Shown: positions 30,604 through 51,791 of the stretch, piece by piece | Layout: each line of letters begins with the position of its first letter | Position numbering within the stretch: position 1 is the first letter of the stretch | Source: an uncultured Opitutia bacterium | GTDB taxonomy: Bacteria > Verrucomicrobiota > Verrucomicrobiia > Opitutales > UBA953 | Direction of reading: 5' to 3' | Length of the DNA: 64,000 nucleotides | Assembly: GCA_903855995.1 (NCBI GenBank) | Contig: CAIOAN010000013.1 | Span: 78,875-142,874, forward strand | Made by a program: the position numbers and the translations under genes | Notes under the pieces: generated by a model | What the model was told of the DNA's origin: nothing | What the model saw: only the letters and a program-made list of their open reading frames with translations | The model's database searches: none

Positions 30604-30611
30604 CTGGGTAA

Positions 30612-33600
30612 TTATCTGGAAAGGACTGAGATACCACACATCGCATCGACGTTGCGCATCTGGTTCATCGTGGGGAATTCGTTAGTGGGCTCGGTAAGTA
30701 ATGCGGTCTGCGCCTCAAAAGACACCAAAAGGTTACCGGCCGCGTCAGCGTTTCCAGAATACCAAAGACCTGCGGTGTACTCGGCCACCTTACCCGCCCA
30801 ACGATCAATGATCGAATCCAGATGCCGCTCGATGTCCTCGGCTTCCGAGGGGTCCTGGCGCGTGAAGCGGTCAAGCAGGTAAGCCCTGATGGCTTGAACC
30901 TCAGGCATACTAGGATCGAAGGCCCCCGCCCCCTTAGGTCCGGCAAGGGCTCTAACAGTATGGCGGGCGATAATGACGAAGGCTGCATGGAGTGCACGCT
31001 CACGAGCACGAGAGGCAAAAGGAGTTACACTGGTGGCCTCGACCTCGGCGTAGAAGCTTCCGTGATAGCGCTGAAAATGCTCGTAGAATGATCGATCTCG
31101 GGAGCGGTTCGGACTGTAGAGCATGAAAACGAGGCCGGGATACTTACGGCCTACTCGGCTGGAAGCTTGAATATACTCGGCCGTGGTCTTGGGCTGTCCG
31201 AGCATGAACATCAGGCTGAGTCGTGGGATATCTAGGCCAACCGAGATCATGTTCGAGCACAGCACCGAGTCGACGGCCGTGCCAGCATCGAGACTGTTGC
31301 CCAATTGGGAGCGCGTGGAGACGAGACCCTGTTCATCGACTCGGCTGGTAAGTTCAAGAGGGCTAGCGGGATTGCGGGCGCCCTTTGAACTGGGAAGGCT
31401 GCCCAAGGCCTGAATCAAGGAGCGCACATCGTCCTGCACCCTCACGATAGCACCGCCAAGGTCACGCAAGCTACAGAAGTAGCCGACCGTGGTCCAATAG
31501 GGATCCTTTACCGCAGGAGCAGCGTCAAGTTCCTTGGCGCCCTGTAACATCACGCCTGCCGACTTGATCATGATACCCTGGGTCGTCTTGTTAGCACCGA
31601 ACATACCCACGTAACGTCGCGATTTTGTCACACCTGCAGCTCCGCTCAGTTCACGAGCGAAGAAGGAGTCGCGCGAGTCGATATAGGGAGGAGGAAACTG
31701 GATGACTTCACGGTCAAACAGATTGATGACTTGGCGGCCCGCATTTCGGATGGTCGCGGTTGACGCGATCACCTTCGGCCGGACTCCGTCAGCGGACTCG
31801 CATAGCTTATCGATGGCGGCCTCATAGAGGCCTGAGATTGTGCCCAGAGGTCCGCTCACCAGATGCAACTCATCTTGGATCACCAGATCAGGCTTCATGT
31901 TCGCACCGTCGGTAGCGAACAAGTTTCCCGCTTCCTGCCTGAACGCGAGTTGAGCAAACTTATCAAGCGTACCGATGATCAATGATGGCCGAGCCGCGAA
32001 CACCTCGTCATCCGCGACATGGACTGGAATATCGTTTTTGAAATCGCACGCCTGATTCGGACAGGGCAAGGCGATACGCTTTAAACGCATCTCAACACGG
32101 TAATTGGCTGGCGTGATCGTCGTGTTACACCAAGGACAAGACACCAGCTTACAAGGACTGCCCTTGCCGTCCATGGGCATCCCGCGCTGGACGTTATTCA
32201 AAGCCTTCCTGGCTTCGTCGAAATTATTTGGGGTCGAACCACCGCCCACATACATACCGATGCTGATCTTGGGGGTTCCTCGAAGTCGTGCGTGAGTATT
32301 TCGCACATGTTCAGCAGCACAGATCATGCGTGAAGCACGGACAAACTGATCTACCGTAAGAAGGCGAAGCGTGTAACGCATCATCACGGCGACACCGCCG
32401 GCAGAAGCCGCCCCGCCAAGCGGCTTAAGGCGACGATAGAATAGTGTGAATGCGGTCAGAAGAAGGTAGGCCTCCGTCTTGCCGCCGCCCGTCGGGAACC
32501 ACAGCAAGTCACACAGTTTACGATCCGAACCTTGGCGGTTCGTAATACTCGTCAGACATTGCAGGACAAACGCGAGCTGGAACGGACGCCAATTGCATTC
32601 GGCAACCGGCTTAGCCTGGGTCTCGTCGTAGGGCACGCCTGCAGCCTTGTCTCGCTCCCATTCCGAGCGTCGCATGACCTCAAGCATCACCTTATTCGCC
32701 AAGGTGAAGGCGAGAAGTGCGTCCGCATCGCCGCGTAGGGCTTCAATTCCAGCCGAGATCCGAGCAACTGAAGACGTGCAGCGGGCATACTGCGCATCCG
32801 CGACATCGCGGAACTCTTCCGGGACCCCACCGCTCCGAGTAGCACGCGTCTCCTCGATCCATGCGGCATACTTAGCGGGAATCTCGGAAAGCAAAGCGAG
32901 CGCAGCAACCGTGTCATCGGCGGCCAACACACCCATGTTAAGATTGGCCGTGCGATCCGTAGGCGCCACGAGCGGCAAGACGTCCGCATACGGCAGGAAC
33001 TCTGCCCTAATCTTGCTTGGGGCGAGCTCGCCGGGCAGCCAGGATGCCGCGCAGCCATGGCCGATGGCGTATTCCTTGCTGTGTAGGTGAAGCAGCAGGG
33101 CTTCCTTACGGTCGGCATCCATGCCGGTAATCCCGCGAGAGGGACGTTCCACGAAGACCCCAGCTGAAAGGGAAACCTCCATGTTCACCTGGAAGAAGGA
33201 CAGCCTCGTCACATTGACGTGATTACCAGAGTCGCTGAAAAGGCTATTCACCAATGAAACCGTGACAGTGCGTGTGCCGTCTACCGGCTCTCGGACTAAT
33301 ACGCGCAGGACGGCATCGGAGGGCATTCCATCCTTTTGCAGGTATGACTCGCTTCCAGCCGACCCACAGGGCACGTCGAAGGAAAATGCCATAGGCTCTC
33401 GCGTCCAGGAGCAGTCACGACCATCGGCAGAGGATTCCCCTTGCCGATAACGGCCGAAGCCACCCGCGACCTTGATCATCAGGATATCGGCAGGCACCGT
33501 GAACGTGATACCACAGCTAGATTGCTTGCGGATCTTATTGGAGGCCTCACGAGCGGCCCCATCACCGGACCCTTCGTCGGGGCCATCATACTTCTCACCA

Positions 33601-33806
33601 TGCCCGGTCTCGGTCACCTCGCTCGCATCGGGCGGCAGGTCGTCCGGAAGTTGCGGGTAGAGCGTACCCGTGAGGTATTCATTGCTCGGCTTGAAACGAC
33701 GGGTGAGCGAGATGATCTCGGCTTCGCCTTCGGCTGGACCCACCAGGTGCTTACGGAAATAGGCAAGAAGTTCGTCCCGACATTCGGAGGCGTTCTGTAG
33801 AGGCAT
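30612..33806 (-). CDS. large SF2 DEAD/DEAH-type helicase with ~430-aa unknown N-terminal region (DrmA-like)
   Basis: 1064 aa. Motif I LWFPTGGGKTEAYL, motif II VIQDELHLVSGPLG, motif VI QASSRVGR. Immediately upstream of the DUF1998 gene. Confidence 0.75.
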   Translation of the reverse strand: MPLQNASECRDELLAYFRKHLVGPAEGEAEIISLTRRFKPSNEYLTGTLYPQLPDDLPPDASEVTETGHGEKYDGPDEGSGDGAAREASNKIRKQSSCGITFTVPADILMIKVAGGFGRYRQGESSADGRDCSWTREPMAFSFDVPCGSAGSESYLQKDGMPSDAVLRVLVREPVDGTRTVTVSLVNSLFSDSGNHVNVTRLSFFQVNMEVSLSAGVFVERPSRGITGMDADRKEALLLHLHSKEYAIGHGCAASWLPGELAPSKIRAEFLPYADVLPLVAPTDRTANLNMGVLAADDTVAALALLSEIPAKYAAWIEETRATRSGGVPEEFRDVADAQYARCTSSVARISAGIEALRGDADALLAFTLANKVMLEVMRRSEWERDKAAGVPYDETQAKPVAECNWRPFQLAFVLQCLTSITNRQGSDRKLCDLLWFPTGGGKTEAYLLLTAFTLFYRRLKPLGGAASAGGVAVMMRYTLRLLTVDQFVRASRMICAAEHVRNTHARLRGTPKISIGMYVGGGSTPNNFDEARKALNNVQRGMPMDGKGSPCKLVSCPWCNTTITPANYRVEMRLKRIALPCPNQACDFKNDIPVHVADDEVFAARPSLIIGTLDKFAQLAFRQEAGNLFATDGANMKPDLVIQDELHLVSGPLGTISGLYEAAIDKLCESADGVRPKVIASTATIRNAGRQVINLFDREVIQFPPPYIDSRDSFFARELSGAAGVTKSRRYVGMFGANKTTQGIMIKSAGVMLQGAKELDAAPAVKDPYWTTVGYFCSLRDLGGAIVRVQDDVRSLIQALGSLPSSKGARNPASPLELTSRVDEQGLVSTRSQLGNSLDAGTAVDSVLCSNMISVGLDIPRLSLMFMLGQPKTTAEYIQASSRVGRKYPGLVFMLYSPNRSRDRSFYEHFQRYHGSFYAEVEATSVTPFASRARERALHAAFVIIARHTVRALAGPKGAGAFDPSMPEVQAIRAYLLDRFTRQDPSEAEDIERHLDSIIDRWAGKVAEYTAGLWYSGNADAAGNLLVSFEAQTALLTEPTNEFPTMNQMRNVDAMCGISVLSR

Positions 33807-33837: not shown

Positions 33838-35670
33838 TCAAGGCCAGACCGCCTTGGCTAAGCCTTCGATCTCGACGTAACACCAGAGCAGACTGGCAGC
33901 CACTTCGGGCGGAAGGCCTTCCATCGATTCACAGTCACCAGGAGTGGTCGTATAGATACCCCGCACCCAGCAGCCCTCCAGTCGGACCGGGAGAGGGAAA
34001 TCCTTGCCCCACCCCTGGATTGATTGACGGGTCGCCTGGAGATCCCGGGAAAACCACGACGACATCTCCCCCACCTTTAGCCCCGATGAGCGATGAATCA
34101 TCGAATAGATAGCGGCCGCGCCCTCTTCCCTAGACGGTCCGAGCACTAGATCGACGATTTCCCCACGATTGCAGAGTTCCGTCAACTTTGACTGTGCTGA
34201 AGCAGCGGCTTCCAGGGAGGGGAACCTCACGAATGACACCGGATCGACATCACCCTGAACCCCGACCTCGAAGGCCTTGATCCCCATACCGCTGCCCATA
34301 TACATGCACTCTGCCCATCGATCGCTCTTCTTGGATTTACGAAGCAAAGGGGCTACCCCGCCATCTATTCTGAAATTTCTGACCTTAGCCCGTGACATAC
34401 CTACGAACCGCATACGCTGATAATACCCAGGGGTAGGCTCTTCCTGGCCCTTCCATGGCACGTAATCGACGTACGCGACCTCATCGAACTCACGGCCCTT
34501 CGAACGATGGATAGTAGAAAAAACGATCGGGTTGTAAGACCTGTCGGGGGCGGGAAGCGGCACAAACTGTTGGGCACGATTCAGGGCAATCACGATATCC
34601 CGGACCTTCGGATTATTCTTCCCACTAAAACAAGCGCGCCTCAAAGCAAGATGGGCGTCAGCAGCGGAAACGCCGGAAGGAAGCCGTAAGCTCAGCTCCC
34701 CTTCCAGGAGTTCCAGGTTGATTTCTGTAGCCTGAGGTTTCCCGAATAACAGCCGCCCCACCCAGGCAGGATGGGCCCAGTCACGCTCCCCTCGGGCGAT
34801 GACGACGGCTTCGCCGGCCAGGATAGATCGGCTAGCGGAAAGTAAGATCTGACCATTATTCGGACAGACCACGGCGCGGGATTGGCCGCGATCAGGGGTC
34901 GGCCAGGAAAGAGCCGCCAACGAGCCGCCAGCCTGGGATTGCGCCAGGGCGGAGTCCAAACCCGCCTTGGCTGCTTCGTGCTCCCCATCGACCAAAGAAG
35001 CCCAAGGGAGCGTGCAGAGCTCGACTAAGCTCGGGTCGCTTGAGCGGTAGTAGTTGTTAAGTCTATGAATCTGGACTGCCGAAGGTAGCTCGCGACACTC
35101 GAAAACGTTCAGCATTTCAAGCGAAGTGGTCAGGGCATCGTTGTCTAGCAGGCTGAAGTCATAGATCGCCTGAGCTGAATCTGCGAAAACCGTGAATCCA
35201 GCCTGAGGCATCTGGCCGAACAGTGTCGTCATCATGTCCGCCCGAGGGCCGATGATGTCCTGTGCTTCGTCGACTAATACGTGCTTATACTGAGTCACAC
35301 CGCAAGCATCGGGATCGTCTTCAAGGTCACGAATAGCGCGGATGACACGCTCATCATAGGTGCCTGTGTTTTCACCACTTGCCTGCTGAAGCACCAAGCT
35401 CGCAAAAGAATCGAGGGTGCGGATCGTGACCGCCGCGGCATTCGACTGTTCGTCCAGTAGCCCGATACGGCGCTTCAGTTCGTCCCGGGCGGCCCGGGAG
35501 AACGAAAGCACCAGCAACTCGCCTGGCAAGCACTGCCCCGAGTCGACGAGTTGGGCAATACGTGAGACCAGGACGTGGGTCTTCCCCCGGCCAGGACCTG
35601 CCTGCACGACGATATTGGCGTCAATCGGGGCATCGACGACCGCTTGCTGCTCGGAGTCTAGGGGCATCAT
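33838..35670 (-). CDS. UvrD/Rep-type SF1 helicase with ~170-aa unknown C-terminal domain
   Basis: 610 aa. Motifs VQAGPGRGKTHVL, HVLVDEAQD, TIHRSKGREFD, FVGMSRAK. Confidence 0.8.
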   Translation of the reverse strand: MMPLDSEQQAVVDAPIDANIVVQAGPGRGKTHVLVSRIAQLVDSGQCLPGELLVLSFSRAARDELKRRIGLLDEQSNAAAVTIRTLDSFASLVLQQASGENTGTYDERVIRAIRDLEDDPDACGVTQYKHVLVDEAQDIIGPRADMMTTLFGQMPQAGFTVFADSAQAIYDFSLLDNDALTTSLEMLNVFECRELPSAVQIHRLNNYYRSSDPSLVELCTLPWASLVDGEHEAAKAGLDSALAQSQAGGSLAALSWPTPDRGQSRAVVCPNNGQILLSASRSILAGEAVVIARGERDWAHPAWVGRLLFGKPQATEINLELLEGELSLRLPSGVSAADAHLALRRACFSGKNNPKVRDIVIALNRAQQFVPLPAPDRSYNPIVFSTIHRSKGREFDEVAYVDYVPWKGQEEPTPGYYQRMRFVGMSRAKVRNFRIDGGVAPLLRKSKKSDRWAECMYMGSGMGIKAFEVGVQGDVDPVSFVRFPSLEAAASAQSKLTELCNRGEIVDLVLGPSREEGAAAIYSMIHRSSGLKVGEMSSWFSRDLQATRQSIQGWGKDFPLPVRLEGCWVRGIYTTTPGDCESMEGLPPEVAASLLWCYVEIEGLAKAVWP

Positions 35671-35780: not shown

Positions 35781-37181
35781 ATGGGCATGCCCAAAACCTT
35801 CATCGACCTCTTCGCCGGCATCGGCGGGTTCCATTGGGCGTTGAAGGGCCTCGGCTACGACTGCCTGCTAGCCGTCGAGAAAGACGAGGCTGCCCAAGAG
35901 ATTTACGGGAGGAACTTCAAAGAAAAAATCCGAAAAGGTAAGTCGACCCTCAATAAACTCATCGGAGACATTCGTTCACTTACAAGGAGCAACCCAGAGG
36001 ACGAAGACACAGAAATCATGCCCCACAAAATCGCCGCTAGATTTAAAGATGAGTTTAAAATCGAAGTAGGAGATGTCGGAGTAATCTGCGGAGGCTTCCC
36101 CTGCCAGCCCTTCTCTAAATCTGGGGCCCAAAAGGGCGACAAGGATGCAACCCGAGGAACGCTTTTCCATGACATCTTACTACTTACGGAAGCCCTTAAG
36201 CCTGAATACCTAATCCTGGAGAATGTGCGCAACTTTGCCGGAGACAATCACAAGCACACACTAGAAATCATCGTCAGCAGAATCGAGACCTTAGGTTATG
36301 ACATAGAGAAGAAACCAATCACACTATCACCCCACCAGCTTCCTGAAAACAAGGGAAGCCCGCAAGTCCGAGACCGGGTCTTCATCCTAGCTCGCAAGAA
36401 AGAACTGAAGTCAGGTGCTGCGCCAATCGAAGTCGCTAAACACATCGATTTCATAAAAAAAGAGGATAAGCCAAACTGGGACGCCAGTTCAATCTTAGGA
36501 GCACGCGCAAGCGATAAGTATAAACTGAGCAAAGCAGAGAAATCCTGGCTGAGAATCTGGGAGGAGTTCCTCAAACTGACCCACGACATCGAGCTGCCAG
36601 GACACCCTATATGGTCCGATGTTTTTGGCAATCCTCCCGTGATCACTGATGAGATGCCAGAGTGGGAAAGAAATTTCCTCAAAGGTAATCACAAGTTATA
36701 CCTGAAACTCACCAAGGACCCTAAACGCCGCAAAGCAATCGGGGGCTGGCTAGCCAAACTCCACAAAGAAAGGAAGAATTCCGAAGGAGAATTTGTCAGA
36801 ATCATTCCGACCTCACGCAGAAAATTCGAGTGGCAGGCAAACCGCGCCTTCAAAGACGGCGAAAAAAGGACCTTGAAGAGACTTCTGATCCAGTTCCGGC
36901 CAAGCGGAATTCGCGTTAAGCCTGCGACCCACTACCCTGCCCTGGTCGCTATGACTCAAACCACTATTGTTGGCCCATTGGCGGGATCAAAAAAACCCAG
37001 GCCAGACTATAGATACATAACGCCCAAGGAGGCGGCCAAGCTCCAAGGCATGTACCATATTAAATTTGGACGACAGGCTGATACCTTGAGTTACAAACAG
37101 TTAGGAAACGCGGTGAATGTCAAAGTCATCAAATACCTGGCGGAGAGGCTTACGGGCGCAGTTCCCTGCGAAACTCCATAG
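35781..37181 (+). CDS. DNA (cytosine-5)-methyltransferase
   Basis: 466 aa. Motif I FIDLFAGIGGF, motif IV GGFPCQPFS, motif VI LILENVRNF, motif X QLGNAV. Confidence 0.9.
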   Translation: MGMPKTFIDLFAGIGGFHWALKGLGYDCLLAVEKDEAAQEIYGRNFKEKIRKGKSTLNKLIGDIRSLTRSNPEDEDTEIMPHKIAARFKDEFKIEVGDVGVICGGFPCQPFSKSGAQKGDKDATRGTLFHDILLLTEALKPEYLILENVRNFAGDNHKHTLEIIVSRIETLGYDIEKKPITLSPHQLPENKGSPQVRDRVFILARKKELKSGAAPIEVAKHIDFIKKEDKPNWDASSILGARASDKYKLSKAEKSWLRIWEEFLKLTHDIELPGHPIWSDVFGNPPVITDEMPEWERNFLKGNHKLYLKLTKDPKRRKAIGGWLAKLHKERKNSEGEFVRIIPTSRRKFEWQANRAFKDGEKRTLKRLLIQFRPSGIRVKPATHYPALVAMTQTTIVGPLAGSKKPRPDYRYITPKEAAKLQGMYHIKFGRQADTLSYKQLGNAVNVKVIKYLAERLTGAVPCETP

Positions 37182-37791
37182 CCTGGATGCCACGGAGGTG
37201 CAGGATTTTGTGGCAAGAAGGGCACACGGCGACGAACTCCTTGGCCGACGGCAAACGGCTAACAGACTTAAGGTAGGCCATGGTACAATGTGCCTCGAGT
37301 ACGGGGTGGCCTAACCGCACCCCAGGGCTATCGCCGCAGCAGTAGCAGGCGGCATCAATCCCAAGATCAGGCCCCGCGGGAGGCTCGCGCTCGGTCCTCA
37401 GATGTCCGGCCAAGCCAGCACGGCCTAGCTGAGAGTTGGGCAAGTCCGCCCCTTCCTGGACCACCACTGCCCGAAAAGAGTCAAACCTAGCCAAGATTGC
37501 ATCAAACCAGCGATTCGTGACACGGGCCCCACGGGCAGTCATGGTGCGTTCGTCAAAAGGAATGGCCGTATAATTACAGATCAGCTGGCATAAGCCAACC
37601 TTGTCCCGGATGCCGGCCAGCTCCCCGGGGACTCCGACGGCCTGGGCCACTTCCCGGAAGAACTCCTTGGTCACCTGTCCACCCCGGGAGACATGGCCCG
37701 CTTTGACGGTGATGCCGAGCAAGTCAGCCAGGACAACCAGTCGGGTGCGGGGGCGTTCTTTCCTCATTCTCGTAGAACCACCCTGCCCCAT
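37150..37791 (-). CDS. HNH-type endonuclease-like protein (C-terminal Cys4/HNH module), N-terminal domain unknown
   Basis: 213 aa. Motifs CYCCG ... LEAHC ... CPSCHKILH. GC visibly higher than either neighbour (hand-counted line 67% against 42% in the methylase). Its 3' end overlaps the methylase 3' end by 32 nt, convergent. Confidence 0.5.
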   Translation of the reverse strand: MGQGGSTRMRKERPRTRLVVLADLLGITVKAGHVSRGGQVTKEFFREVAQAVGVPGELAGIRDKVGLCQLICNYTAIPFDERTMTARGARVTNRWFDAILARFDSFRAVVVQEGADLPNSQLGRAGLAGHLRTEREPPAGPDLGIDAACYCCGDSPGVRLGHPVLEAHCTMAYLKSVSRLPSAKEFVAVCPSCHKILHLRGIQAMEFRRELRP

Positions 37792-37857
37792 ATCTTATAT
37801 TAGACAATATCTTTACAGCCCCCTTAGGCGGGATAGACAGGAACACCCCATACACCC

Positions 37858-39480
37858 ATGAGCGAACCGCTTGAATCTGGCAGCATCGATGCTCGCCCAG
37901 ACGCCGGCATTTTTAATGTCATCCGGCACCTCAATTATAAGGCGCAGTACGCGTTCGCCGAATATATTGATAATTCCATTAGTAGTTTCGAGGAGAACAA
38001 GGAAGCGCTCCTCGAACTCGACTCTAGTTATAAGCTGCGAATCGATATCGAGGTAGGCCCTGAGGAGATCAGGATCAAGGACAACGCAGGCGGCATTCCC
38101 CGCGAACAATACGCCCGCGCCTTCAAGACCGCCGAACGTCCGCCTGACCCCAAGAAAGGTCTCAATGAGTTCGGTATGGGCATGAAGACCGCCTCCATCT
38201 GGCTTTCCAGCCATTGGACCGTCATCTCGAACGCTTTGGATGAAAATGAAACTGGAACCGTCATTTTCGACGTCCAGCAGATGATCGATACGAAGACCAC
38301 CATCATCAAGCCGTCCTGGAAAACCAAGCCGAACGCCAAACACCACGGCACGACGATCATCCTGAAGGAGCTAAATCGGCGGATCGCCTCCCTGCCCTCC
38401 ATCAAAGAGCATCTGGGTGAAATCTACCGCGGCTACCTTCGCAGCAAACTTGTAGACATCCGTATCTATCGGACTGGTGACAGCGAGAACGACCCCGAGA
38501 GCATCGTTGCCTTCGAGGAAATGAACCCCCTCGTAGCTAAAGCCGCCTACCCGAACGGCCCCAAGGGCGAAGTCACCTGGAAAAAGGACGTCAAGTTCAC
38601 GCTGCCCGGCGGACAGACGGTCTCTGGCAATGCGATGGTCCTAGAAAAAGGCAGCACCGGCAAGGCAGGCCTCTACCTATTCCGACGCAAACGCCTGATC
38701 ATTGGAGCCAGCGACTCTTACCGCCCTTTCGAAATCTTCGGCCGTTCGACCACCTTCCCCTACCAGCGTATCTACGGAGAACTTCACCTGGACGGCTTCG
38801 AAGTCACCCACACCAAGGACGACATCATTTGGGGATCCAATGGGGACGACGAAGAAACCTTCATCAAGGAGGTGAAGAAAGCCCTGCAGGAGGGTGGACT
38901 CGACCTGCTCATGCAGGCCATGAATCACCGCGCAAAGAATATCGAGGAAAAGGATAAACTCCGCCTTAAGGTCGAAAAAGAAAACGAGGAGATTGAAAAT
39001 GAGATCGTCAAAAAGAAGGAAGGCCTGACTGACTTCACTGACGACGACCTCCTTCCAAGCGAGGAAGAAACAAAAACCGGAAAGGATAACCCTCAAGAAC
39101 TGGCTCCGACCTTTGAAGTCGAAAAAATCGGCGCGAGGGAATTTAGTTTCCCCATCGAAGGCACTCATTGGCATTTCCTTATTTCCGTTGAAAAGAACAG
39201 TGCCGACACCGCGCTGTTCAAGACCTCTGCCAAGCGCGAGACGGATCGTGAAGGAAACAGCAAGGTTAACTGCAAGATCACCATCAACGCCAACAACCGT
39301 TTCGCCCTCAACTACCTCAATCGAAACGAAGAGTTCTACGAAGTTATCCTACGCTTCGCCGTATCGAGCTCATTCGCCAAGGCACGTTGCGATCAGGCCG
39401 GCCTTGAGTATACCAATGCCTTCCTCCGCTACATGAACGAAAGCCTCACCCTGCTCGACGGTAGCAACAAGAATTCCTAA
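37858..39480 (+). CDS. GHKL-superfamily ATPase (HATPase_c_3 / MORC-like)
   Basis: 540 aa. N-box AEYIDNSISS, G1 IKDNAGGI, G2 NEFGMGMKTAS. Confidence 0.8.
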   Translation: MSEPLESGSIDARPDAGIFNVIRHLNYKAQYAFAEYIDNSISSFEENKEALLELDSSYKLRIDIEVGPEEIRIKDNAGGIPREQYARAFKTAERPPDPKKGLNEFGMGMKTASIWLSSHWTVISNALDENETGTVIFDVQQMIDTKTTIIKPSWKTKPNAKHHGTTIILKELNRRIASLPSIKEHLGEIYRGYLRSKLVDIRIYRTGDSENDPESIVAFEEMNPLVAKAAYPNGPKGEVTWKKDVKFTLPGGQTVSGNAMVLEKGSTGKAGLYLFRRKRLIIGASDSYRPFEIFGRSTTFPYQRIYGELHLDGFEVTHTKDDIIWGSNGDDEETFIKEVKKALQEGGLDLLMQAMNHRAKNIEEKDKLRLKVEKENEEIENEIVKKKEGLTDFTDDDLLPSEEETKTGKDNPQELAPTFEVEKIGAREFSFPIEGTHWHFLISVEKNSADTALFKTSAKRETDREGNSKVNCKITINANNRFALNYLNRNEEFYEVILRFAVSSSFAKARCDQAGLEYTNAFLRYMNESLTLLDGSNKNS

Positions 39481-39481
39481 C

Positions 39482-41620
39482 ATGACCTACGACCCGAAAC
39501 CTGGCGAGCTGACGGCGATTTTCCGCAAGGGGATTGATATCCCGGAAAATCAGAAGGACATCCTCGTCGAAGAATCCCTGAAAGTAATCAAGGCGGCGGG
39601 CCCTTCGTCACCCGGGCGCCAAAACGTCGGCCTTGTCGTCGGCTACGTCCAGAGCGGCAAGACCATGAGCCTGACCTGCGTGTCCTCACTGGCACGCGAC
39701 AACGGCTACGGCCACATCATTATCCTCTGCGGGGTTACCAACGAACTTTTCGCCCAGAACATGAAGCGGGTCGAGGATGACCTCATCCTCCCAAGCAAGA
39801 AGAACTTCTTGGCCAAAGATAACCCAAAGAAAACAGAGGCTGACTTTTATCGCGGAAAATTCCGTCTCTGGAAATCATCGAAGGGAAAGAATGCTACCGT
39901 TGTAACGTTCCTGCTGAAGCACTCCAACCACATCAACAATCTGGCTACACTACTTCACAACGTGGGCAAAGACGCTGAAGGGATACCCACCTTGGTGATC
40001 GACGACGAGGCACATATGGCCGGCCTCAACACCTCCTTTAGCAAAGAAGAGGAAAGCAACGTCTACAAGGCGCTCAAGAACCTGCGCTCCAAGCTCCCCG
40101 ACTACGCCTACCTCCAATATACAGCCACTCCGCAGGCCCCGCTGCTCGTTCACGTAGCCGACTGCGTAAGCCCTGAGTTCGCCGTCGTGTTGACACCTGG
40201 TGATGGCTATGTCGGCGGACGTCAATTCTTCCCGGAGAAGTCCAACAAGGAACTCATCATCGACATCCCTGAAAAGGAGTTACCTGAATCGAAGAACCCC
40301 GATCTGCCCAATTCTCCGCCTGCCAGCTTTAAGGAAGCCCTCCAACTGTTCCTCGTCGGCGTGGCCGATAACCTGGCAAAAGATCAGCGCGACACCGAGC
40401 GTTCGATGCTCATCCACCCCCACAAGGAGACGAAATGGCATTGGCGCTACAGTGAACTCACCAAAGACTACCTCAACTTCGCTTACGAAACGCTTACTTA
40501 TGATGACGAAGACGACAAAGCGGCGCTCATCAAGGAATTCAGCAAAGCTTACAAGGAACTGAAGAAAACTTGCAAGAACCTGAGCGGCTACGACGATATC
40601 GTCGCGTCGTTGCCTGAGGCCATCGAGCACGCGAAGTCCGGGATCATCGTCGTCAATTCGACCAACAAGGAAAAGATCCAGTGGACGATCGCCAACATCC
40701 TGATCGGTGGCGAGATTCTCGGCGTAGGCTTCACCGTCAAAGGACTGACGATCAGTTACATGCTACGGACCTCGCCCAAAGGCCAGATTGACTCCATGCA
40801 ACAGCGAGCCCGCTTCTTCGGCTATCGCGGCAAAGATCTGAGTTTGACACGCGTCTACCTCTCCGAAGAGACCCATGCGGCTTTCCGTGACTACGTTAAG
40901 CACGAAGAAGGCACCCGCGAAGAATTGAAGAAGATGCAGAAAGCCGGAAAATCACTCAAGGAGTGGCGTCGCCATTTCTTGATCCGGGCCGGCATGCAAT
41001 TAACTCGTAAGAACATACAATCGCTGCTGACCCAAACCTCCGACCTTGCCAAGATTACTTACCCGATGCATCCCTTTGTAAAGTTCGAGGAGCATAACCC
41101 CGCGCACCTGAATCTGCTCGAAGAAGTAGAAAAAAAATGGGGGCTAAAACTGGATAATGCTACGAAAAAGAACTGGACGGAAGCTCAGCAGCATCTCTCC
41201 GGTTACATTGATGCTAACGTTGTCCTCGATGATATAATTGCTAAGTTCAACTGGAGTCATGAAAACGACGGTGCAAGATGGGATGCTAGTTTTTATCTCC
41301 TAAAACTAATGATCGAAGAAGGAATAAAAGACGGGAAGAAAATGGAGTTCAAAGTCATGGTCATGCGACCCTCTGAACGAGGACAGGGTGAACGTGGAGT
41401 AACTAATGGAACATGGGGCCTCCTACAGGGCCGCAGCCCTTCCAATGGCTATCCCGGTGACAACTCCATGGCCGATCCTGAAGTCACTACAATCCAGCTC
41501 CACTGCTACACCTTCAGGCACGGACGTAGCGATGACGTGATTGGAAGAAACATTGTTGTGCCCATCATCATTCCGGCCAAGCGGGATTCGAAGACCATGC
41601 AATTAATCATGCAGGCTTAA
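39482..41620 (+). CDS. Z1-domain P-loop protein
   Basis: 712 aa. Motifs GYVQSGKTMS and LVIDDEAH. Starts 1 nt after the GHKL stop. Confidence 0.75.
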   Translation: MTYDPKPGELTAIFRKGIDIPENQKDILVEESLKVIKAAGPSSPGRQNVGLVVGYVQSGKTMSLTCVSSLARDNGYGHIIILCGVTNELFAQNMKRVEDDLILPSKKNFLAKDNPKKTEADFYRGKFRLWKSSKGKNATVVTFLLKHSNHINNLATLLHNVGKDAEGIPTLVIDDEAHMAGLNTSFSKEEESNVYKALKNLRSKLPDYAYLQYTATPQAPLLVHVADCVSPEFAVVLTPGDGYVGGRQFFPEKSNKELIIDIPEKELPESKNPDLPNSPPASFKEALQLFLVGVADNLAKDQRDTERSMLIHPHKETKWHWRYSELTKDYLNFAYETLTYDDEDDKAALIKEFSKAYKELKKTCKNLSGYDDIVASLPEAIEHAKSGIIVVNSTNKEKIQWTIANILIGGEILGVGFTVKGLTISYMLRTSPKGQIDSMQQRARFFGYRGKDLSLTRVYLSEETHAAFRDYVKHEEGTREELKKMQKAGKSLKEWRRHFLIRAGMQLTRKNIQSLLTQTSDLAKITYPMHPFVKFEEHNPAHLNLLEEVEKKWGLKLDNATKKNWTEAQQHLSGYIDANVVLDDIIAKFNWSHENDGARWDASFYLLKLMIEEGIKDGKKMEFKVMVMRPSERGQGERGVTNGTWGLLQGRSPSNGYPGDNSMADPEVTTIQLHCYTFRHGRSDDVIGRNIVVPIIIPAKRDSKTMQLIMQA

Positions 41621-41667
41621 ATGCAACCCAAGCTCCTCAACCTTTAACACAAAGCCTATTATAAGAC

Positions 41668-42597
41668 ATGAGATTTGAAGACCGCATCAAGTCCTTGCCC
41701 GACATTCGACAGCAAGAAGGTCTTCTATGGTTCCATGAAAGGAGCGGCAAAGAAGTTGAAGTAAGTTTCCCAATGAAAACTAGCGGAGGGGTTTTCCTAG
41801 CCACCCAAGCAGCTGGCATCCATAAACCAGATTTCAGTGAGTACGTGCTCAGCATTCGCTCATCTTCAGGCAAAGGAGCAACCGAACTATACTCAGACAA
41901 GGCGCCAGTTTTCGAGGAGGATGGCTCATGGACATACCTATATAGACACGAGATACGAGGTGATGCCGACCCAGCAACTATATGGCGTAACAAAGCACTA
42001 CTTAAAAACATGCAAGACGCCGTGCCCGTCGCAGTCATCCTACAGCGCAGTGTTGGGGTTTATCAGATCCTAGGACTCGCCTATGTCGCAGACTACAATC
42101 AGAAAACTGGCTATTTTTTCCTGATAGGCAGACCGGCAGAAAGTAGCGTTAAATCGAACTATCCAGACAGCACCGGGGAAACCGTGGACTTCGAGGCAGA
42201 CACCCGGAAATTCCAAGAGATTCGCCAAGCAGTTCGTCAAGGCCAAGCCAAGTTCCGCATTGATCTACTAGACGCCTACGGTGCCCGTTGCTCGGCCACC
42301 GACTACGACGTCCGGGAAGGCCTAGAAGCAGCACACATAAGACCTTACCGCGGAGCCCATACGAATGAAACACGAAATGGCATCCTACTCCGGGCCGATA
42401 TCCATAACCTGTTTGATTATGGGATTGTCGGGATTGACCCCGACGCCTTGAAAGTTGTGCTGAACCAGCATGCCAGAGGGTCCAAGTATGAACAACTTCA
42501 TGGACAGCAGTTGCGGCTTCCAGATGACACTACATGCCATCCTGATCGTGAACTACTGGAACGGCACCTGAAGTTGCATGGGATAAGCTTGAACTGA
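41668..42597 (+). CDS. SRA/YDG-like (modified-base reader-like) N-domain fused to an HNH_2-type nuclease
   Basis: 309 aa. N-half has AAGIHKP ... LSIRSS ... LYSD ... WTYLY ... NKALLKNMQDAVPVAVI, resembling degenerate SRA blocks. C-half has GLEAAHIRPY ... NGILLRADIHNLFD. Confidence 0.65.
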   Translation: MRFEDRIKSLPDIRQQEGLLWFHERSGKEVEVSFPMKTSGGVFLATQAAGIHKPDFSEYVLSIRSSSGKGATELYSDKAPVFEEDGSWTYLYRHEIRGDADPATIWRNKALLKNMQDAVPVAVILQRSVGVYQILGLAYVADYNQKTGYFFLIGRPAESSVKSNYPDSTGETVDFEADTRKFQEIRQAVRQGQAKFRIDLLDAYGARCSATDYDVREGLEAAHIRPYRGAHTNETRNGILLRADIHNLFDYGIVGIDPDALKVVLNQHARGSKYEQLHGQQLRLPDDTTCHPDRELLERHLKLHGISLN

Positions 42598-42635
42598 TCC
42601 ATAGACGCAAAACTTAGTCGGCCCCCAGACATTAA

Positions 42636-42650
42636 CCATCATCTAGATGG
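42636..42650. promoter_or_regulatory. operator-like palindrome upstream of the second methylase
   Basis: ccatc-atcta-gatgg, including the perfect 10-bp palindrome catctagatg (42640-42649), ~70 nt upstream of ATG 42719. Same half-sites as 43976-44001. Confidence 0.35.
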
Positions 42651-42718
42651 TAAAGTGATTAATTGTGTTCGACAAACGGCATCGAGAAACATAGTGTTCA
42701 GGCGTTCACCATACTTTC

Positions 42719-43966
42719 ATGGACAGCGTACCTTCTTACCTTACTCCCACCCTGCCCTGGGATCAGTTCGCCCTGGATGATCTGGCAACGCTAACCCACA
42801 AAGCCCACCAACCCAAGTTCTTCAAGGAGGAGTTCGTGACGGAAGCCGGCGAAAGCGAGACCCCTGCTCCATTCGCCAAACTGAAGCCAGCCTTCAAAGA
42901 GAAGCCGACGACGACATTCACGTTCATCGACCTCTTCGCAGGCATCGGAGGTTTCCGTGTGGCCGGGCAACACGTCATGGGCTCATGCGTCTTCACTAGC
43001 GAATGGGACAAGTATGCACGCCGGGCATACTTCATGAACTTTGGCCAAGTACCGTTCGGTGATATCACCCAGTTCACCAAGTCGGCCGAAGCCTTAAATC
43101 GCATCCCACCTCATGACGTTCTGTGTGGAGGCTTCCCCTGCCAGGCCTTCAGCATCTCCGGGAAGCAAGAGGGCTTCAAGGACCCACGCGGCACGCTGTT
43201 CTTCGAGATCTACAAGATCGCGAAGCATCACAGACCCAAGGTGCTCTTCCTTGAGAACGTTAAAAACTTCGCCCGTCACGACAACGGCAACACGTTCAGG
43301 ACGATTAGGCACCACCTCGAGAAGAAAATGGCCGAAGAAACGAACGGCGAAGTCAGCTATCGCGTCTCGCACGCCGTGCTTAATGCGAGCGACTTCGGAG
43401 CCTCGACCAAGCGTGAGCGAATCTACCTGGTAGCCGTACGTAGCGACCTGGCAGACGATGAATTCAAGTGGTCCGAGTGGCTGGATCTCTTCGGTAAGTT
43501 AAATAAGCGTAAGAACATCAAACCGCGCTATCTCCATGAAGACATCCAGCCCAACGCTGAGATCGACAAGGGACTCTTGAACAAGCTGACGCTCAAGCGT
43601 GACGACTTCGAGTACGGCAAGCGCAACCTGCCCGAAGCCACGAAGCCACTTCGGATCGGCATCATGGGCAAGGGCGGCCAGGGGGAACGCATCTACTCGA
43701 CGAATGGACACGCCATCACCTTCTCGGCATACGGCGGCGGCGCGGCCTCAAAGACCGGCGCCTACTACGTCGATGGTCGGGTCCGTAAGCTGACTCCCAC
43801 AGAATGCGCCAGGGCTATGGGCTTCCATGGCATGAACGTGAACACCGGAGACGTCCCCCTGCTCCAGCGCTATAAGCAGTTCGGTAACAGCGTGGTGGTC
43901 AACGTCGTTGAAGCTATCTTCGCCGAGATCAAGCGCCACTGGCTACCCGATCCGAAGAGGCGTTGA
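42719..43966 (+). CDS. DNA (cytosine-5)-methyltransferase (second copy, different lineage)
   Basis: 415 aa. Motifs FIDLFAGIGGF, GGFPCQAFSISGK, LFLENVKNF, QFGNSV. Has a ~60-aa N-terminal extension. Confidence 0.9.
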   Translation: MDSVPSYLTPTLPWDQFALDDLATLTHKAHQPKFFKEEFVTEAGESETPAPFAKLKPAFKEKPTTTFTFIDLFAGIGGFRVAGQHVMGSCVFTSEWDKYARRAYFMNFGQVPFGDITQFTKSAEALNRIPPHDVLCGGFPCQAFSISGKQEGFKDPRGTLFFEIYKIAKHHRPKVLFLENVKNFARHDNGNTFRTIRHHLEKKMAEETNGEVSYRVSHAVLNASDFGASTKRERIYLVAVRSDLADDEFKWSEWLDLFGKLNKRKNIKPRYLHEDIQPNAEIDKGLLNKLTLKRDDFEYGKRNLPEATKPLRIGIMGKGGQGERIYSTNGHAITFSAYGGGAASKTGAYYVDGRVRKLTPTECARAMGFHGMNVNTGDVPLLQRYKQFGNSVVVNVVEAIFAEIKRHWLPDPKRR

Positions 43967-43975
43967 CTGAGCAAT

Positions 43976-44001
43976 CCATCTAGGAAGAATCAACTAGATG
44001 G
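43976..44001. promoter_or_regulatory. inverted repeat overlapping the start codon of the 540-aa gene
   Basis: ccatctag-N10-ctagatgg. The ATG at 43998 lies inside the right arm. Confidence 0.35.
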
Positions 44002-45620
44002 AGGATAAAGAAAGTAACGCCAAGAAAGGTTCTGATGCCGTCGATGAGCTCATACAGCTCCTTAAAGCGGGTGACCCTGCCCTGCTGCTGGCATGCTACA
44101 GCATCATTAAAGTCCTTGATCCAGAAATGCCAAAAAACTGGGGCCCTGCCGTTGAGCGAATCAGCAAGGTCACAGGAAAACTTAAAAGTGACATACAAGT
44201 GTCGTTCACGGGTACTAAAGTTACGCTCGCCATCGCAGTAATCAGCGCAGGAACAGGCGGAGGTAATCAAGTAGAACGAAAGCCTGTAGACGACTATCGG
44301 ACGGACCAAGGACTGCCCGACGACCTCATACGGATACTGAAATTGTTCACCGGCGCCACGAAGCCTAACGAAGTGGCTCAGACTGAATTCGTAAAGAACG
44401 CCGACCTAACCAAAGGCCATGCCTACTTCAGGGACCTCAGCCGTGAGAATAAGGTGAAGCTGATTCGCTATCTCCGAACCCACCGGAACACCCTGGTTGA
44501 ACGCGCCCTCCTCGGCAGGGGCGACGCGATCATCGTGGATGGCAAGAAGGTGGGCGTAGACCACGTCAACCTCTTCGCCTTTTACGACAAGCAAAAGCCG
44601 GCTGACAAGGCATGGAGTTACGTCGCAGCAAGCGATGTTATCCAGTCCGTGTTCACTACCGACGTCCAGCCCTCCAGCCGCGGTGAACGTCAGATTCAGA
44701 TCGGACACGGAATCACCCTGAAGCGGTATGGGGGCAGCCTATTCACCGGAGATACCTCGATCAAAGATCACCTTCAGATTCAGATTAGCCCAAGGAAAGT
44801 ATTGGCGGAGTCTACGGACTGGCACCGGTTCAGGGCATTGACCGAGCACCTTTCCTTCGAGATCGATGACAAGCTCTCCAACGCTCAATCTGAAGCGGCA
44901 CACAGAGGATTAGAGGCCGAACAGGCCCTTATCGAAAAGATCAACCGACATGATCCAGACTGCCTGTGGATCGTGGAGGAATGCTGCGAAACTGAGGGGT
45001 ACGGTAATTTCAAAGCGAAGAAACCCGGAAACAGGGAGAAACCTGACGTACTTATTTACGATGACCCATCTAACATCCTAGCGATGAAGGGCATCTCGAT
45101 GAAAACTTACAAGCCGGAGGTTTCATTCAGCCAGGCAAACCGGGGGTCCCTCGAGACATACGTAGAGGAACTAGGCATGTCCTATGGGGTCGCGGAAACC
45201 CTCAGGGCCTTCGTCGTGAAGAACCATAAAGGTGAGCGAACCATGCTCAACGAGGCTCCCGTATCGGCACAAGATGAGCTGCTTAGATTCTTCCAGCTTT
45301 ACCAACGACAGATCATCTCTCACGTACTGCGGGGCAAAGCTAAAGGGGTGCTAAAAGCAGACTGGCTACTGCTGCATGAGACGATAAATGAAGATTGGAT
45401 AAGCAAGGTTGGCAACCGGGACTACTGGCATCTCTACCCCATGGCCACCGTCATTGATTGCTGCTGCACCGAAGCCCCATCGATAACGAAAGCAGGCAAC
45501 ATGATCCTAGGACTTGGCCTAACCCTGCAACGCAAGGGCGGCGACGGCGGGGCGAAGTCTGCTAACGACCTACAATTTAAGCTGAATCCAAAGTTGATTC
45601 ATGAGGCTTTGAGAAATTAA
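43998..45620 (+). CDS. hypothetical protein with internal duplication; candidate restriction partner of the adjacent methylase
   Basis: 540 aa. The two halves end in similar blocks (GHGITLKRYGG...DHLQIQISPRKV and GLGLTLQRKGG...NDLQFKLNPKLI). There is a weak PD..(D/E)xK-like stretch EKPDVLIYDD...GISMKTYK. No family recognised. Confidence 0.55.
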   Translation: MEDKESNAKKGSDAVDELIQLLKAGDPALLLACYSIIKVLDPEMPKNWGPAVERISKVTGKLKSDIQVSFTGTKVTLAIAVISAGTGGGNQVERKPVDDYRTDQGLPDDLIRILKLFTGATKPNEVAQTEFVKNADLTKGHAYFRDLSRENKVKLIRYLRTHRNTLVERALLGRGDAIIVDGKKVGVDHVNLFAFYDKQKPADKAWSYVAASDVIQSVFTTDVQPSSRGERQIQIGHGITLKRYGGSLFTGDTSIKDHLQIQISPRKVLAESTDWHRFRALTEHLSFEIDDKLSNAQSEAAHRGLEAEQALIEKINRHDPDCLWIVEECCETEGYGNFKAKKPGNREKPDVLIYDDPSNILAMKGISMKTYKPEVSFSQANRGSLETYVEELGMSYGVAETLRAFVVKNHKGERTMLNEAPVSAQDELLRFFQLYQRQIISHVLRGKAKGVLKADWLLLHETINEDWISKVGNRDYWHLYPMATVIDCCCTEAPSITKAGNMILGLGLTLQRKGGDGGAKSANDLQFKLNPKLIHEALRN

Positions 45621-45654: not shown

Positions 45655-47187
45655 ATGCCCCAGCCTGATACCAAAACCAGGAATGTATGGATCCTAAAGA
45701 ACAACGGATCAACACCTGAGCAAATTAAGGCCATGGTAGACAAAGGCCGATACGAATTGGACATAGGGCCTTACTACGGTGCCTCAAATCCATTGGATTT
45801 TGAGAATAAACGTGAAGAGTTCATCTCTGCTTGCAATAAAATCGCCCAAGAAGATCGAAACAAATCTAATTCGAAAACATACTTTGGACGTCAACAGTGG
45901 GACCTCTGCTGGGCAGTTAAGCCAGGCGACCGCGTTGTCCTCGTCGACCGAGCCGGCAAAAAGTGGAAAGGTTCATACATAGTCTCAAAGGGTACAGTTG
46001 TCGGGAACTATAGGTGCGAGCAGTCAGACGTCGGCTTTCGACATACGATCGATGTCCAATGGGACGGCAACTTCACCGAGATCGCAAAAGAATCAGACGG
46101 CTTCGAGATGAACATGCTCATGGTAATTGATGCTACCAATGATGCTGAACTCCTTAAACGCATCGGCGAAGCCGAACCAATCTCAAACAAAAAATATACT
46201 CCAATGTCTAAGCCCTTAAAACCACGTCCTGCAGCCAGATTCAAAGGCCCACTTAATATTATACTTTGCGGGCCTCCGGGAACGGGGAAGACATATAACA
46301 CGATCAATAAGTCAGTGGCACTATGTCACAGCAAAGATGACCCGGAGTGGGCCATGCCCTCAGACGACAAGCGTGATGAGTTGGAACGTGAGTTTCAAAA
46401 TCTTATAAATGAAGGACGTATAGAGTTCGTTACGTTTCACCAATCCTACGACTACGCCGACTTCATACAAGGCATCCGCCCGAGCCTAGACAGTGGAACC
46501 GTGACCTTTAATCACGTACCGGGTCCGCTTAAGCGTATCGCTGACAGAGCAGCCGAAAGCTACGATTCTACAACAGGACCAAAGCCTTACGTCCTTATCA
46601 TCGATGAAATAAACCGAGGGAATATTTCTAAGGTGTTCGGCGAACTCATCACTTTGGTCGAAGAAGATAAACGTGGCGTTAACGGCTATGAAGGCGGTCT
46701 GTCGATCTCGTTACTAAATCCAAACACACCTGGAGAGCGCTTCCATCTGCCACCCAACCTCTACATCATCGGAACACTCAATACCGCAGACAGGTCAATC
46801 CAAAGGCTGGATTCCGCCATGCGTAGACGCTTCGACTTTGAGGAAGTGATGCCAAATCCCGACAAACTTAGCGCGAACCCCTTGCTCGTCGACTTCCTCA
46901 AGACCCTCAACAACCGACTCAGGAAAGCACGACCAGATTCGGGGTGCCTAGTCGGTCACGCTTGGCTCATGGATAAGAATGGGAATGGCCTAACAATCGA
47001 CCAAGACATCTGTCGTGCGCTTAATAACAAAGTCATCCCGCTGCTTCGCGAATGGTTCTGGGACCAGTCGGATGAACTGAGAGAGGATATTCTCAACAAC
47101 GCCAGCCAATGCTACAACGGCGATGACCTTAAAAAGCTCACCGAAAGCGACCTCAAGGGGTTCCTTGAAACCTTCAAGAATACCTGA
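45655..47187 (+). CDS. mcrB: McrB-like AAA+ GTPase subunit of a type IV (modification-dependent) restriction system
   Basis: 510 aa. Motifs LCGPPGTGKTY, LIIDEINRGNISKVFGEL, IIGTLNTADRS. Has a ~200-aa N-terminal DNA-reader-like domain. Confidence 0.85.
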   Translation: MPQPDTKTRNVWILKNNGSTPEQIKAMVDKGRYELDIGPYYGASNPLDFENKREEFISACNKIAQEDRNKSNSKTYFGRQQWDLCWAVKPGDRVVLVDRAGKKWKGSYIVSKGTVVGNYRCEQSDVGFRHTIDVQWDGNFTEIAKESDGFEMNMLMVIDATNDAELLKRIGEAEPISNKKYTPMSKPLKPRPAARFKGPLNIILCGPPGTGKTYNTINKSVALCHSKDDPEWAMPSDDKRDELEREFQNLINEGRIEFVTFHQSYDYADFIQGIRPSLDSGTVTFNHVPGPLKRIADRAAESYDSTTGPKPYVLIIDEINRGNISKVFGELITLVEEDKRGVNGYEGGLSISLLNPNTPGERFHLPPNLYIIGTLNTADRSIQRLDSAMRRRFDFEEVMPNPDKLSANPLLVDFLKTLNNRLRKARPDSGCLVGHAWLMDKNGNGLTIDQDICRALNNKVIPLLREWFWDQSDELREDILNNASQCYNGDDLKKLTESDLKGFLETFKNT

Positions 47188-51787: not shown

Positions 51788-51791
51788 GCCC

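Follow-up and report, generated by a model that had tools for sequence, protein, structure and literature searches.

A GHKL-Z1 restriction-like operon without its usual nuclease, next to a probably autonomous TagI-like SRA-HNH protein, in an uncultured Opitutia bacterium

Bacterial operons in which ATPases of the MORC/paraMORC type are joined to superfamily 2 (SF2) helicases, cytosine methylases, and nucleases of the restriction endonuclease fold or the Vsr family were inferred in 2008 by Iyer, Abhiman, and Aravind (PMC2292703), and in the literature searched, systems that combine a methylase, a GHKL ATPase, a Z1 protein, and DUF4420 appear in comparative work only (PMC2292703, PMC5379612). 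Z1 proteins are also part of the restriction-modification (RM) systems CglI, NgoAVII, and BceSIV, in which a C5 cytosine methylase is accompanied by an R subunit with PLD and B3 domains and by a DEAD-Z1 ATPase, the H or N subunit. These H/N subunits are, to our knowledge, the only Z1 proteins with biochemistry. The CglI proteins assemble as R2H2, and the partner subunit cleaves only with ATP-driven translocation (PMC4267653, PMC5861437). The Mza systems pair a MutL-like ATPase with a Z1 protein and AIPR, and the Type IV enzymes TagI, ScoA3IV, and TbiR51I combine an SRA domain with a beta-beta-alpha-Me HNH domain (PMC6212794, PMC4333417, PMC6765204). Here we describe a locus in a 64,000-nucleotide stretch of DNA from an uncultured Opitutia bacterium (contig CAIOAN010000013.1; this whole stretch is referred to as the window) in which genes for a GHKL ATPase, a Z1 ATPase, and an SRA-HNH protein follow one another.

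The three genes are co-directional on the forward strand and encode a 540-amino-acid (aa) GHKL ATPase of the MORC/MutL-like HATPase_c_3 type (37858-39480), a 712-aa DEAD-Z1 SF2 ATPase (39482-41620), and a 309-aa SRA-HNH protein (41668-42597). The gaps between them are 1 nucleotide (nt) (position 39481) and 47 nt (41621-41667), and in these respects the coordinates agree with an initial annotation made from the sequence alone. That annotation took the three genes for a single module, lying between two C5 methylases, in which the SRA-HNH protein replaces the usual nuclease partner. We consider it reasonably probable that the locus instead comprises two adjoining units. Unit A (35781-41620) would be a restriction-like system made up of the upstream C5 methylase (MT1), a small HNH-like protein (sHNH), and the GHKL and Z1 ATPases. 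Unit B (41668-45620) would be a mobile triad that begins with an autonomous, TagI-like SRA-HNH endonuclease, a facultative neighbor of unit A and not one of its subunits.

The neighborhood of the ATPase genes in distant genomes defines the conserved unit. Species-representative genomes were scanned with a Z1 alignment, which returned at least 589 relatives; 80 loci (30 to 38% identity, many phyla) were kept, and their open reading frames (ORFs) were searched with the window proteins. An MT1-like C5 methylase, a GHKL ATPase, and a Z1 protein occurred in that order, co-linear and tightly packed, at 56 of the 67 loci with room upstream. An ORF of about 330 aa resembling DUF4420 started no more than a few bases from the Z1 stop codon at 63 of the 75 loci with room downstream, and all nine such proteins tested belonged to Pfam DUF4420, a predicted PD-(D/E)XK nuclease; a Vsr gene followed DUF4420 at 23 of the 80 loci. 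These counts support the earlier statement that GHKL-Z1 pairs accompany C5 methylases. They also place the three genes of the initial annotation differently, as what is conserved is the set of upstream methylase, GHKL, and Z1.

Because methylase, GHKL, Z1 is the order conserved in distant genomes, MT1 (35781-37181, forward strand; Pfam DNA_methylase, 1.4e-53; PADLOC DruM2, 5e-100) is taken to be the cognate methylase of the ATPase pair. It retains motifs I, IV, VI, and X in intact form, and the FxGxG, PCQ, and ENV motifs are present both in MT1 and in the downstream methylase, MT2 (42719-43966, forward strand; Pfam DNA_methylase, 7.8e-75). The placement of the genes between two C5 methylases was therefore right in that both enzymes are real, but only MT1 appears to belong with GHKL and Z1. 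MT1 shares 56 to 67% aa identity with its counterparts in two close relatives (L004 and L005; related loci are cited by such numbers), compared with 79 to 92% for the neighboring DrmA, GHKL, and Z1 proteins. As MT1 is so much more diverged than its neighbors, this suggests an exchange of the target-recognition region and an altered specificity inside a block that is otherwise conserved. Among the distant loci there is also a GHKL subtype whose N terminus is longer by about 450 aa and includes a Pfam MTaX1 (methylase-associated X1) domain, found in L024 (7040-9937), L047, L067, and L071. The methylase of these loci lies downstream of DUF4420, and L024 additionally has DrmA and DrmB upstream in the same direction.

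Profile searches agreed with the initial assignments of HATPase_c_3, Z1, and HNH_2, each match exceeding its curated Pfam cutoff, and the motifs quoted at the time are present (EYIDNS, DNAGGI, and GMGMK in the GHKL protein; GYVQSGKT and DDEAH in the Z1 protein). The GHKL protein matches Pfam HATPase_c_3 at 1e-13 (52 bits against a cutoff of 25), and its Bergerat motifs (E35/N39, D75xGxG79, and G106xG108) do not vary among 23 homologs. The Z1 protein matches Pfam Z1 at 3.5e-38 (132 bits), with the Walker A motif GxxQSGKT and the DDE motif invariant among 25 homologs. In PADLOC, it matches Helicase_II, a Type II helicase domain protein, over residues 47 to 483 (4e-61) and MzaC over residues 370 to 493 only (9e-22); the GHKL protein has a weak match to MzaB (3.8e-4). 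Sequence searches of the PDB with both proteins and their family profiles found nothing significant beyond a weak match of the GHKL family profile to MutL (E = 0.027). The best identity of any Z1 relative among the GTDB representatives is 38%; the closest relatives are metagenomic, one of them labeled "freshwater metagenome."

By gene content and order, unit A is assigned to the MORC/paraMORC-Z1 class of RM operons described by Iyer and colleagues. It shares with them a homologous methylase, GHKL, and Z1 in the same order, is likewise tightly packed (the 1-nt gap), and has all ATPase motifs intact. It differs in having neither the DUF4420 nuclease nor Vsr, in carrying the sHNH gene, lacking the general-base histidine, on the opposite strand between methylase and GHKL, and in being block-linked to a NERD-helicase/DrmB/DrmA/UvrD-like unit. 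With CglI, NgoAVII, and BceSIV, the locus has in common a C5 methylase and a DEAD-Z1 ATPase homologous to the H/N subunit, a similarity so remote that not even the profile search found a PDB sequence match to the Z1 protein. The window has a GHKL ATPase in addition, and none of the ORFs scanned from 16 to 57 kb matched PLD or B3; because the PLD-B3 subunit is missing, unit A is not of the CglI type. The pairing of GHKL and Z1 ATPases recalls Mza, but the matches to Mza proteins are weak or partial, the system is methylase linked, and PADLOC gave no match to MzaA, MzaD, or MzaE (AIPR) in it, so unit A is not an Mza system either. With DISARM, the window shares DrmA and DrmB, transcribed divergently from a C5 methylase. 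However, DrmC (PLD), DrmD, and DrmE had no matches, genes for a UvrD-like helicase and a NERD-helicase being present instead, and the methylase next to DrmAB belongs to the GHKL-Z1 operon family.

The nuclease that would be expected after Z1 is missing. A hidden Markov model (HMM) built from the 63 DUF4420-like ORFs, run in six frames at an E value of 10 or less, gave no hit to the window, L001, L004, L005, or L008. AIPR had no match among the scanned ORFs of the 16- to 57-kb region, and the window has two C5 methylases and no Vsr. The absence of the usual nuclease partner, proposed at the outset, was thus upheld. The possibility of a DUF4420 remnant in the window was considered and rejected in view of the six-frame search.

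Sequence comparison indicates that the clade to which the window belongs has exchanged DUF4420 for an HNH protein, the clade-specific sHNH between methylase and GHKL, which was missing from the earlier three-gene account. The sHNH gene (37150-37791, reverse strand; homologs suggest a start at 37767) overlaps the convergent 3' end of MT1 by 32 nt (37150-37181) and is divergent from the GHKL gene across 66 to 90 nt (37768/37792-37857). It encodes an N-terminal helical domain followed by a zinc-ribbon HNH-like domain (CxxC...CxxCH). Homologs occupy the same position between methylase and GHKL in L004 (1e-131) and L005 (1e-95). They do so also in L093 and L094 (1e-23), where the Z1 proteins are only 43% identical to that of the window, and a split homolog directly follows Z1 in L095 (Z1 41% identical). 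The gene is kept beside GHKL across a range of 41 to 97% Z1 identity; L008 lacks sHNH altogether. Only 10 of 1.84 billion cluster representatives belong to this tiny family.

Canonical members of this family align as CxxC...EAHH (or DH)...CPNCH..H. We take the second histidine of EAHH to be the general base, corresponding to His103 of colicin E9 and His840 of Cas9. In the window sub-clade, the zinc cysteines and the first histidine are retained, the second position is Cys, Ala, or Val (EAH[C/A/V]), and Ser replaces Asn; in the window protein itself, C169 follows the invariant H168 at the general-base position. The HNH proteins of L093, L095, and L008 match Pfam HNH above threshold (8e-7 for the sHNH protein of L093). 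The window sHNH has no Pfam match even at an E value of 1 or less, which the alignment explains by the substitution of His and Asn in its sub-clade. An AlphaFold2 model (predicted local distance difference test [pLDDT] score, 80.5) gave no significant Foldseek match, but the weak best matches were all HNH nucleases (E = 0.18 to 1.7); the N-terminal helical domain received no assignment. The ratio of nonsynonymous to synonymous substitution rates (dN/dS) of the sHNH gene is 0.08 to 0.11, similar to that of its neighbors and indicative of purifying selection. In the window sub-clade, sHNH has probably ceased to be a conventional nuclease.

The SRA-HNH protein, on the other side of the 47-nt gap, resembles a complete Type IV enzyme. 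It matches Pfam HNH_2 at 1.1e-11 (45 bits against a cutoff of 21), and in its C-terminal half it can be aligned with the HNH domain of VcaM4I, an EVE-HNH enzyme (profile E = 1.8e-12). The N-terminal domain had been described as a degenerate SRA-like domain. Pfam SAD_SRA found no match in the 309-aa protein at an E value of 0.01 or less, so the word "degenerate" is fair, and the predicted structure (AlphaFold2 model; mean pLDDT, 82) places the domain among SRA-like folds. The top Foldseek match in the PDB was the SRA-HNH enzyme TagI (E = 1e-7), followed by VcaM4I, the SRA domains of SUVH5 and SUVH6 (3e-4 to 4e-3) and of KRYPTONITE, ScoMcrA, and AbaSI. TagI has the same two-domain layout of SRA and beta-beta-alpha-Me HNH, is nearly the same size (311 aa), and is very remote in sequence. 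The family profile reaches it at an E value of 0.003, pairing the family sequence VPVGV.RQ...Y.VLGLAYV with PVRVIR...YRYDGLYKV of TagI, so that LGLAY replaces the TagI-type YDG motif. Among the 32 sequences of the family alignment, the HNH residues H223, N237, and H246 are invariant. In the N-terminal domain, Y75 is invariant, W88 is invariant or nearly so, D77 is conserved in more than 90% of the sequences, and Y92 is conserved; these residues resemble the TagI pocket residues Tyr55, Asp58, and Tyr67 (PMC6212794). About 60 clusters of this family are known.

The genomic contexts of the SRA-HNH gene and of the ATPase pair separate the two. A triad of SRA-HNH, a 415-aa methylase, and an R.HinP1I-like endonuclease is found next to GmrSD genes and without GHKL or Z1 both in L001 to L003 (82% identity) and in the P0042 locus (52% identity). 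MT2 always follows SRA-HNH and precedes the R-HINP1I gene (L001 to L003, L005 to L007, and the P0042 locus) and is cognate to the HinP1I-like endonuclease. More distant SRA-HNH homologs (41% and 36% identity) are solitary genes that have no methylase in the vicinity. The SRA-HNH genes of other contexts share homology in their upstream DNA, where the window has the 3' end of Z1 instead. Conversely, what follows Z1 varies among relatives. In the window and in L005 to L007, it is SRA-HNH, methylase, R.HinP1I-like endonuclease, and McrBC; in L004, a ScoMcrA_N/AAA_5 protein with a DUF2357-PDDEXK_7 protein, a McrBC-like pair (12158-15804); in the P0151 locus, a McrBC-like pair similar to that of L004; in L008, a HaeIII RM system and then an HNH_2 protein with an unrelated N-terminal domain and an HNH protein (14687-16753); and in L176, another RM system. 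GHKL and Z1 are intact and constrained in all of these loci, including the relatives that lack SRA-HNH (L004, L008, L176, and the P0151 locus), with a dN/dS of 0.055 to 0.077 between the window and L004. Since the genes after Z1 vary and the triad exists without GHKL and Z1, the three genes probably do not form an obligate machine, and neither the single module nor the replacement nuclease of the initial annotation could be sustained.

Members of the SRA-HNH family nevertheless recur beside Z1 systems in varying arrangements. In L093 and L094, SRA-HNH lies upstream of sHNH-GHKL-Z1 and is 80% identical to that of the window although the Z1 proteins are only 43% identical. In Sphingomonas hylomeconis (L059), it abuts DUF4420 (38% identity over the full length); in L054, it is convergent to the Z1 system; in L100 and L101, it follows DUF4420; in L097, it lies immediately upstream of a longer Z1 type with DUF4420; and L113 has an HNH_2 fragment placed as in L097. 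In four of these loci (L054, L059, L097, and L100), it co-occurs with an intact DUF4420. Z1 was present within 10 kb in 7 of 15 independent SRA-HNH contexts, compared with 1 of 24 contexts of other HNH_2 proteins (Fisher P = 0.003), a count biased by ascertainment since several of the Z1-linked contexts came from Z1 queries. The unbiased fraction is lower for this reason, and a hand tally of SRA-HNH-queried contexts only, made without statistics, gave about 3 of 11 with Z1. A C5 methylase lay within a few kilobases in 9 of the 15 contexts and in 1 of the 24 (P = 0.0002).

These findings are best read as showing a recurrent, dispensable neighbor of C5-methylase/Z1 systems and not a replacement nuclease subunit. 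That SRA-HNH is autonomous is argued by the triad without Z1, the solo homologs, its varying position, and its 80% identity in L093 against 43% for Z1, and also by the fold match to TagI, the invariant HNH catalytic residues, and the conserved Y-x-D pocket-like motif. Several observations weigh against this view. No active nuclease is predicted among the proteins of unit A, since DUF4420 is gone and the general base of sHNH is lost, and this leaves room for recruiting the intact HNH next door. No forward-strand terminator was predicted in the 47-nt gap between Z1 and SRA-HNH, so co-transcription is possible; the promoter and terminator scan of 35.5 to 44.2 kb was otherwise uninformative, with counts below the shuffled expectation. 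A stronger argument than the context counts comes from the Z1 side: two full-length SRA-HNH family members lie within 2.5 kb of the 80 Z1-queried loci, and because so rare a family recurs beside Z1 far above chance, some functional coupling may exist. Modification-dependent enzymes do not typically lie, as SRA-HNH does here, between two C5 methylases that appear to be active: a DNA methylase occurs within 3 kb of fewer than 6% of the PUA-superfamily-HNH enzymes (PMC6765204), and the host of TagI has no C5 methylases (PMC6212794). The window family thus differs from the known SRA-HNH enzymes in adjoining active-looking C5 methylases in most contexts. Finally, the literature searched held no experimental study of methylase-GHKL-Z1(-DUF4420) systems, in keeping with the initial remark that they are poorly characterized.

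We propose that unit A would function as an ATP-dependent, methylation-based, restriction-like system in which MT1 marks self DNA. By analogy with the H subunit of CglI, the Z1 protein would be a DNA-dependent ATPase and a motor of the SF2 type that translocates along double-stranded DNA. The GHKL protein, as suggested by MutL and MORC, may be an ATP-gated dimerizing clamp or matchmaker that couples recognition to the nuclease or the motor (PMC2292703). The sHNH protein, which would have displaced DUF4420 in the clade, is probably a DNA-binding or adaptor subunit in the window sub-clade. Candidate sources of cleavage would be residual sHNH activity, the NERD/DrmAB unit, which may supply nuclease or motor functions, or a neighbor. 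In unit B, with its SRA-HNH, C5 methylase, and tandem HinP1I-like endonuclease, the SRA-HNH protein would act alone and as a dimer, like TagI, with the SRA domain flipping 5-methylcytosine (5mC) or 5-hydroxymethylcytosine (5hmC) and the HNH domain nicking or cutting nearby. It would attack DNA carrying foreign 5mC or 5hmC, complementing the methylation-sensitive systems around it, and would have to be blind to the patterns of MT1 and MT2.

The NERD-helicase/DrmB/DrmA/UvrD-like block lies upstream of MT1 on the reverse strand (27145-28845, 28855-30639, 30612-33806, and 33838-35670; PADLOC DrmB, 3e-77, and DrmA, 5e-216; GajB-like UvrD matches; Pfam NERD). It is possible, although we consider it unlikely, that this block and MT1-sHNH-GHKL-Z1 form a composite eight-gene system with one shared methylase and with NERD or another protein as the nuclease. 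Such a system would concern unit A only, and SRA-HNH could still be autonomous. Every window-clade locus read has the two blocks side by side (L004, L005/L006, L008, the P0151 locus, and L176/L177), a linkage that spans 57 to 97% Z1 identity and reaches down to 47% identity of the UvrD-like protein. The loss of the sHNH catalytic residue, or of the whole gene in L008, coincides with DrmAB linkage, and L093 and L095, which have no DrmAB, retain HH or DH. The distant locus L024 likewise joins DrmA-DrmB to GHKL-Z1-DUF4420-methylase, all co-directional. However, a 29%-identical UvrD-like protein heads a UvrD-like/DrmA/DrmB/NERD unit without GHKL or Z1 in L178, 79 of the 80 distant Z1 loci lack DrmAB, and adjacency within defense islands is common without functional coupling. 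We treat the block as a separate unit that became block-linked because it stands alone in L178 and is absent from those 79 loci.

It is less probable still that GHKL, Z1, and SRA-HNH constitute one machine in which the ATPases deliver or activate a methylation-reading HNH as the replacement nuclease. Such a machine would make sense of the missing DUF4420, of the loss of the sHNH catalytic His in exactly the window clade, of an intact HNH protein that starts 47 nt after Z1 with no predicted terminator between, and of the recurrence of the family beside Z1 systems in unrelated lineages. Nevertheless, the four relatives named above keep GHKL and Z1 under purifying selection without SRA-HNH, and SRA-HNH retains its own triad without them. 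At the loci where SRA-HNH co-occurs with DUF4420, it is no substitute for that nuclease, and neither its order nor its orientation is conserved. In its obligate form, with SRA-HNH as the replacement nuclease, this arrangement was rejected in view of the contexts of the relatives.

A looser arrangement, in which the GHKL-Z1 motor uses or regulates SRA-HNH as a facultative second, methylation-reading effector, would amount to a real partnership of C5 methylase, GHKL, and SRA, and we regard it as improbable. Were it to exist, SRA-HNH could make up for the probable inactivity of the cognate HNH in the window clade, and the partnership would parallel, in bacteria, the DNMT-SRA-MORC axis of eukaryotes and might even be its antecedent; plant MORC6 is known to bind SUVH2 and SUVH9, which are SRA proteins (PMC3898904, PMC4865133). 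Very improbable is a role of SRA-HNH as a functional analog of Vsr that flips the T of T:G mismatches arising from 5mC deamination and nicks the strand: it would account for the attachment to C5 methylases (9 of 15 contexts against 1 of 24), for the presence of SRA-HNH in L059 and L100 in the slot after DUF4420 that Vsr takes in 23 of 80 loci, and for a window with two C5 methylases and no Vsr, but L054 and L059 carry both Vsr and SRA-HNH, which also weakens plain displacement of one by the other, the 36 to 41% identical homologs have no methylase nearby, and the nearly invariant D77 of Y-x-D would be the counterpart of the carboxylate through which SRA domains prefer cytosine to thymine (PMC6212794).

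With two adjoining units as the preferred reading, the locus belongs to a known but experimentally uncharacterized class, and what is unexpected in it is a constrained HNH protein without its catalytic base and an SRA-HNH family associated with methylases. Methylase-GHKL-Z1 operons are widespread (the at least 589 loci above), and their GHKL proteins are prokaryotic relatives of the eukaryotic MORC ATPases. The window holds a compact variant in which the usual nuclease is gone, a base-less HNH is still under selection, and an intact SRA-HNH lies next door, which makes it a good test bed for the coupling of methylation sensing to cleavage by ATPases. The SRA-HNH family also runs counter to the published rarity of modification-dependent PUA-HNH enzymes near DNA methylases, and the way in which a genome with both SRA-HNH and C5 methylases avoids self-cleavage becomes directly testable.

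The third gene of unit B (43998-45620, forward strand; Pfam R-HINP1I, 3.9e-23) encodes a 540-aa tandem-duplicated R.HinP1I-like restriction endonuclease, with lengths of 543 to 547 aa in L001, L005, and the P0042 locus. As both halves of the protein (residues 59 to 267 and 372 to 532) match R-HINP1I, it may be a single-chain pseudo-dimer that arose by internal tandem duplication. In the P0042 locus, where Z1 is lacking, a distinct 634-aa HATPase_c_3 gene (12115-14019, reverse strand) is convergent to the triad, which again puts a GHKL gene next to SRA-HNH. Type IV-like modules targeting modified DNA follow soon after Z1 in the five characterized loci of the window clade, whether SRA-HNH, ScoMcrA_N/AAA_5 with DUF2357-PDDEXK_7, McrBC, or HNH_2 with HNH, so that methylation-sensitive and methylation-dependent restriction are consistently paired there; L176, with a C5 methylase and uncharacterized ORFs after Z1, is an exception.

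Both units lie in a low-GC island at about 20000-57000 (GC content of 0.48 to 0.58, compared with 0.60 to 0.64 in the left flank and 0.58 to 0.61 in the right) that is dense in defense genes. Besides the NERD-helicase/DrmB/DrmA/UvrD-like block, MT1-sHNH-GHKL-Z1, and the SRA-HNH triad, it contains DUF3800, an IS200-like Y1 transposase (23466-24398), GmrSD (25334-27139), and McrBC, and its right part holds AddB/AddA-like genes (48833-55091), followed by another NERD-helicase gene (55096-56814). The AddB/AddA-like genes (a PDDEXK_1 protein and then a UvrD-type helicase, partly cut in L005) edge a variable region in L001, L004, and L005 as well, and for this reason the region that they bound looks like an insertion hotspot. 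The McrBC genes (45655-48698, forward strand) encode a McrB-like AAA_5 GTPase (Pfam AAA_5, 1e-17) and McrC (Pfam McrBC, 3.8e-40) and form a separate Type IV system. The N terminus of the McrB-like protein (45655-46250) is a domain of about 190 aa with weak similarity to SH3_12/PDC-S02, presumably a reader of DNA modification.

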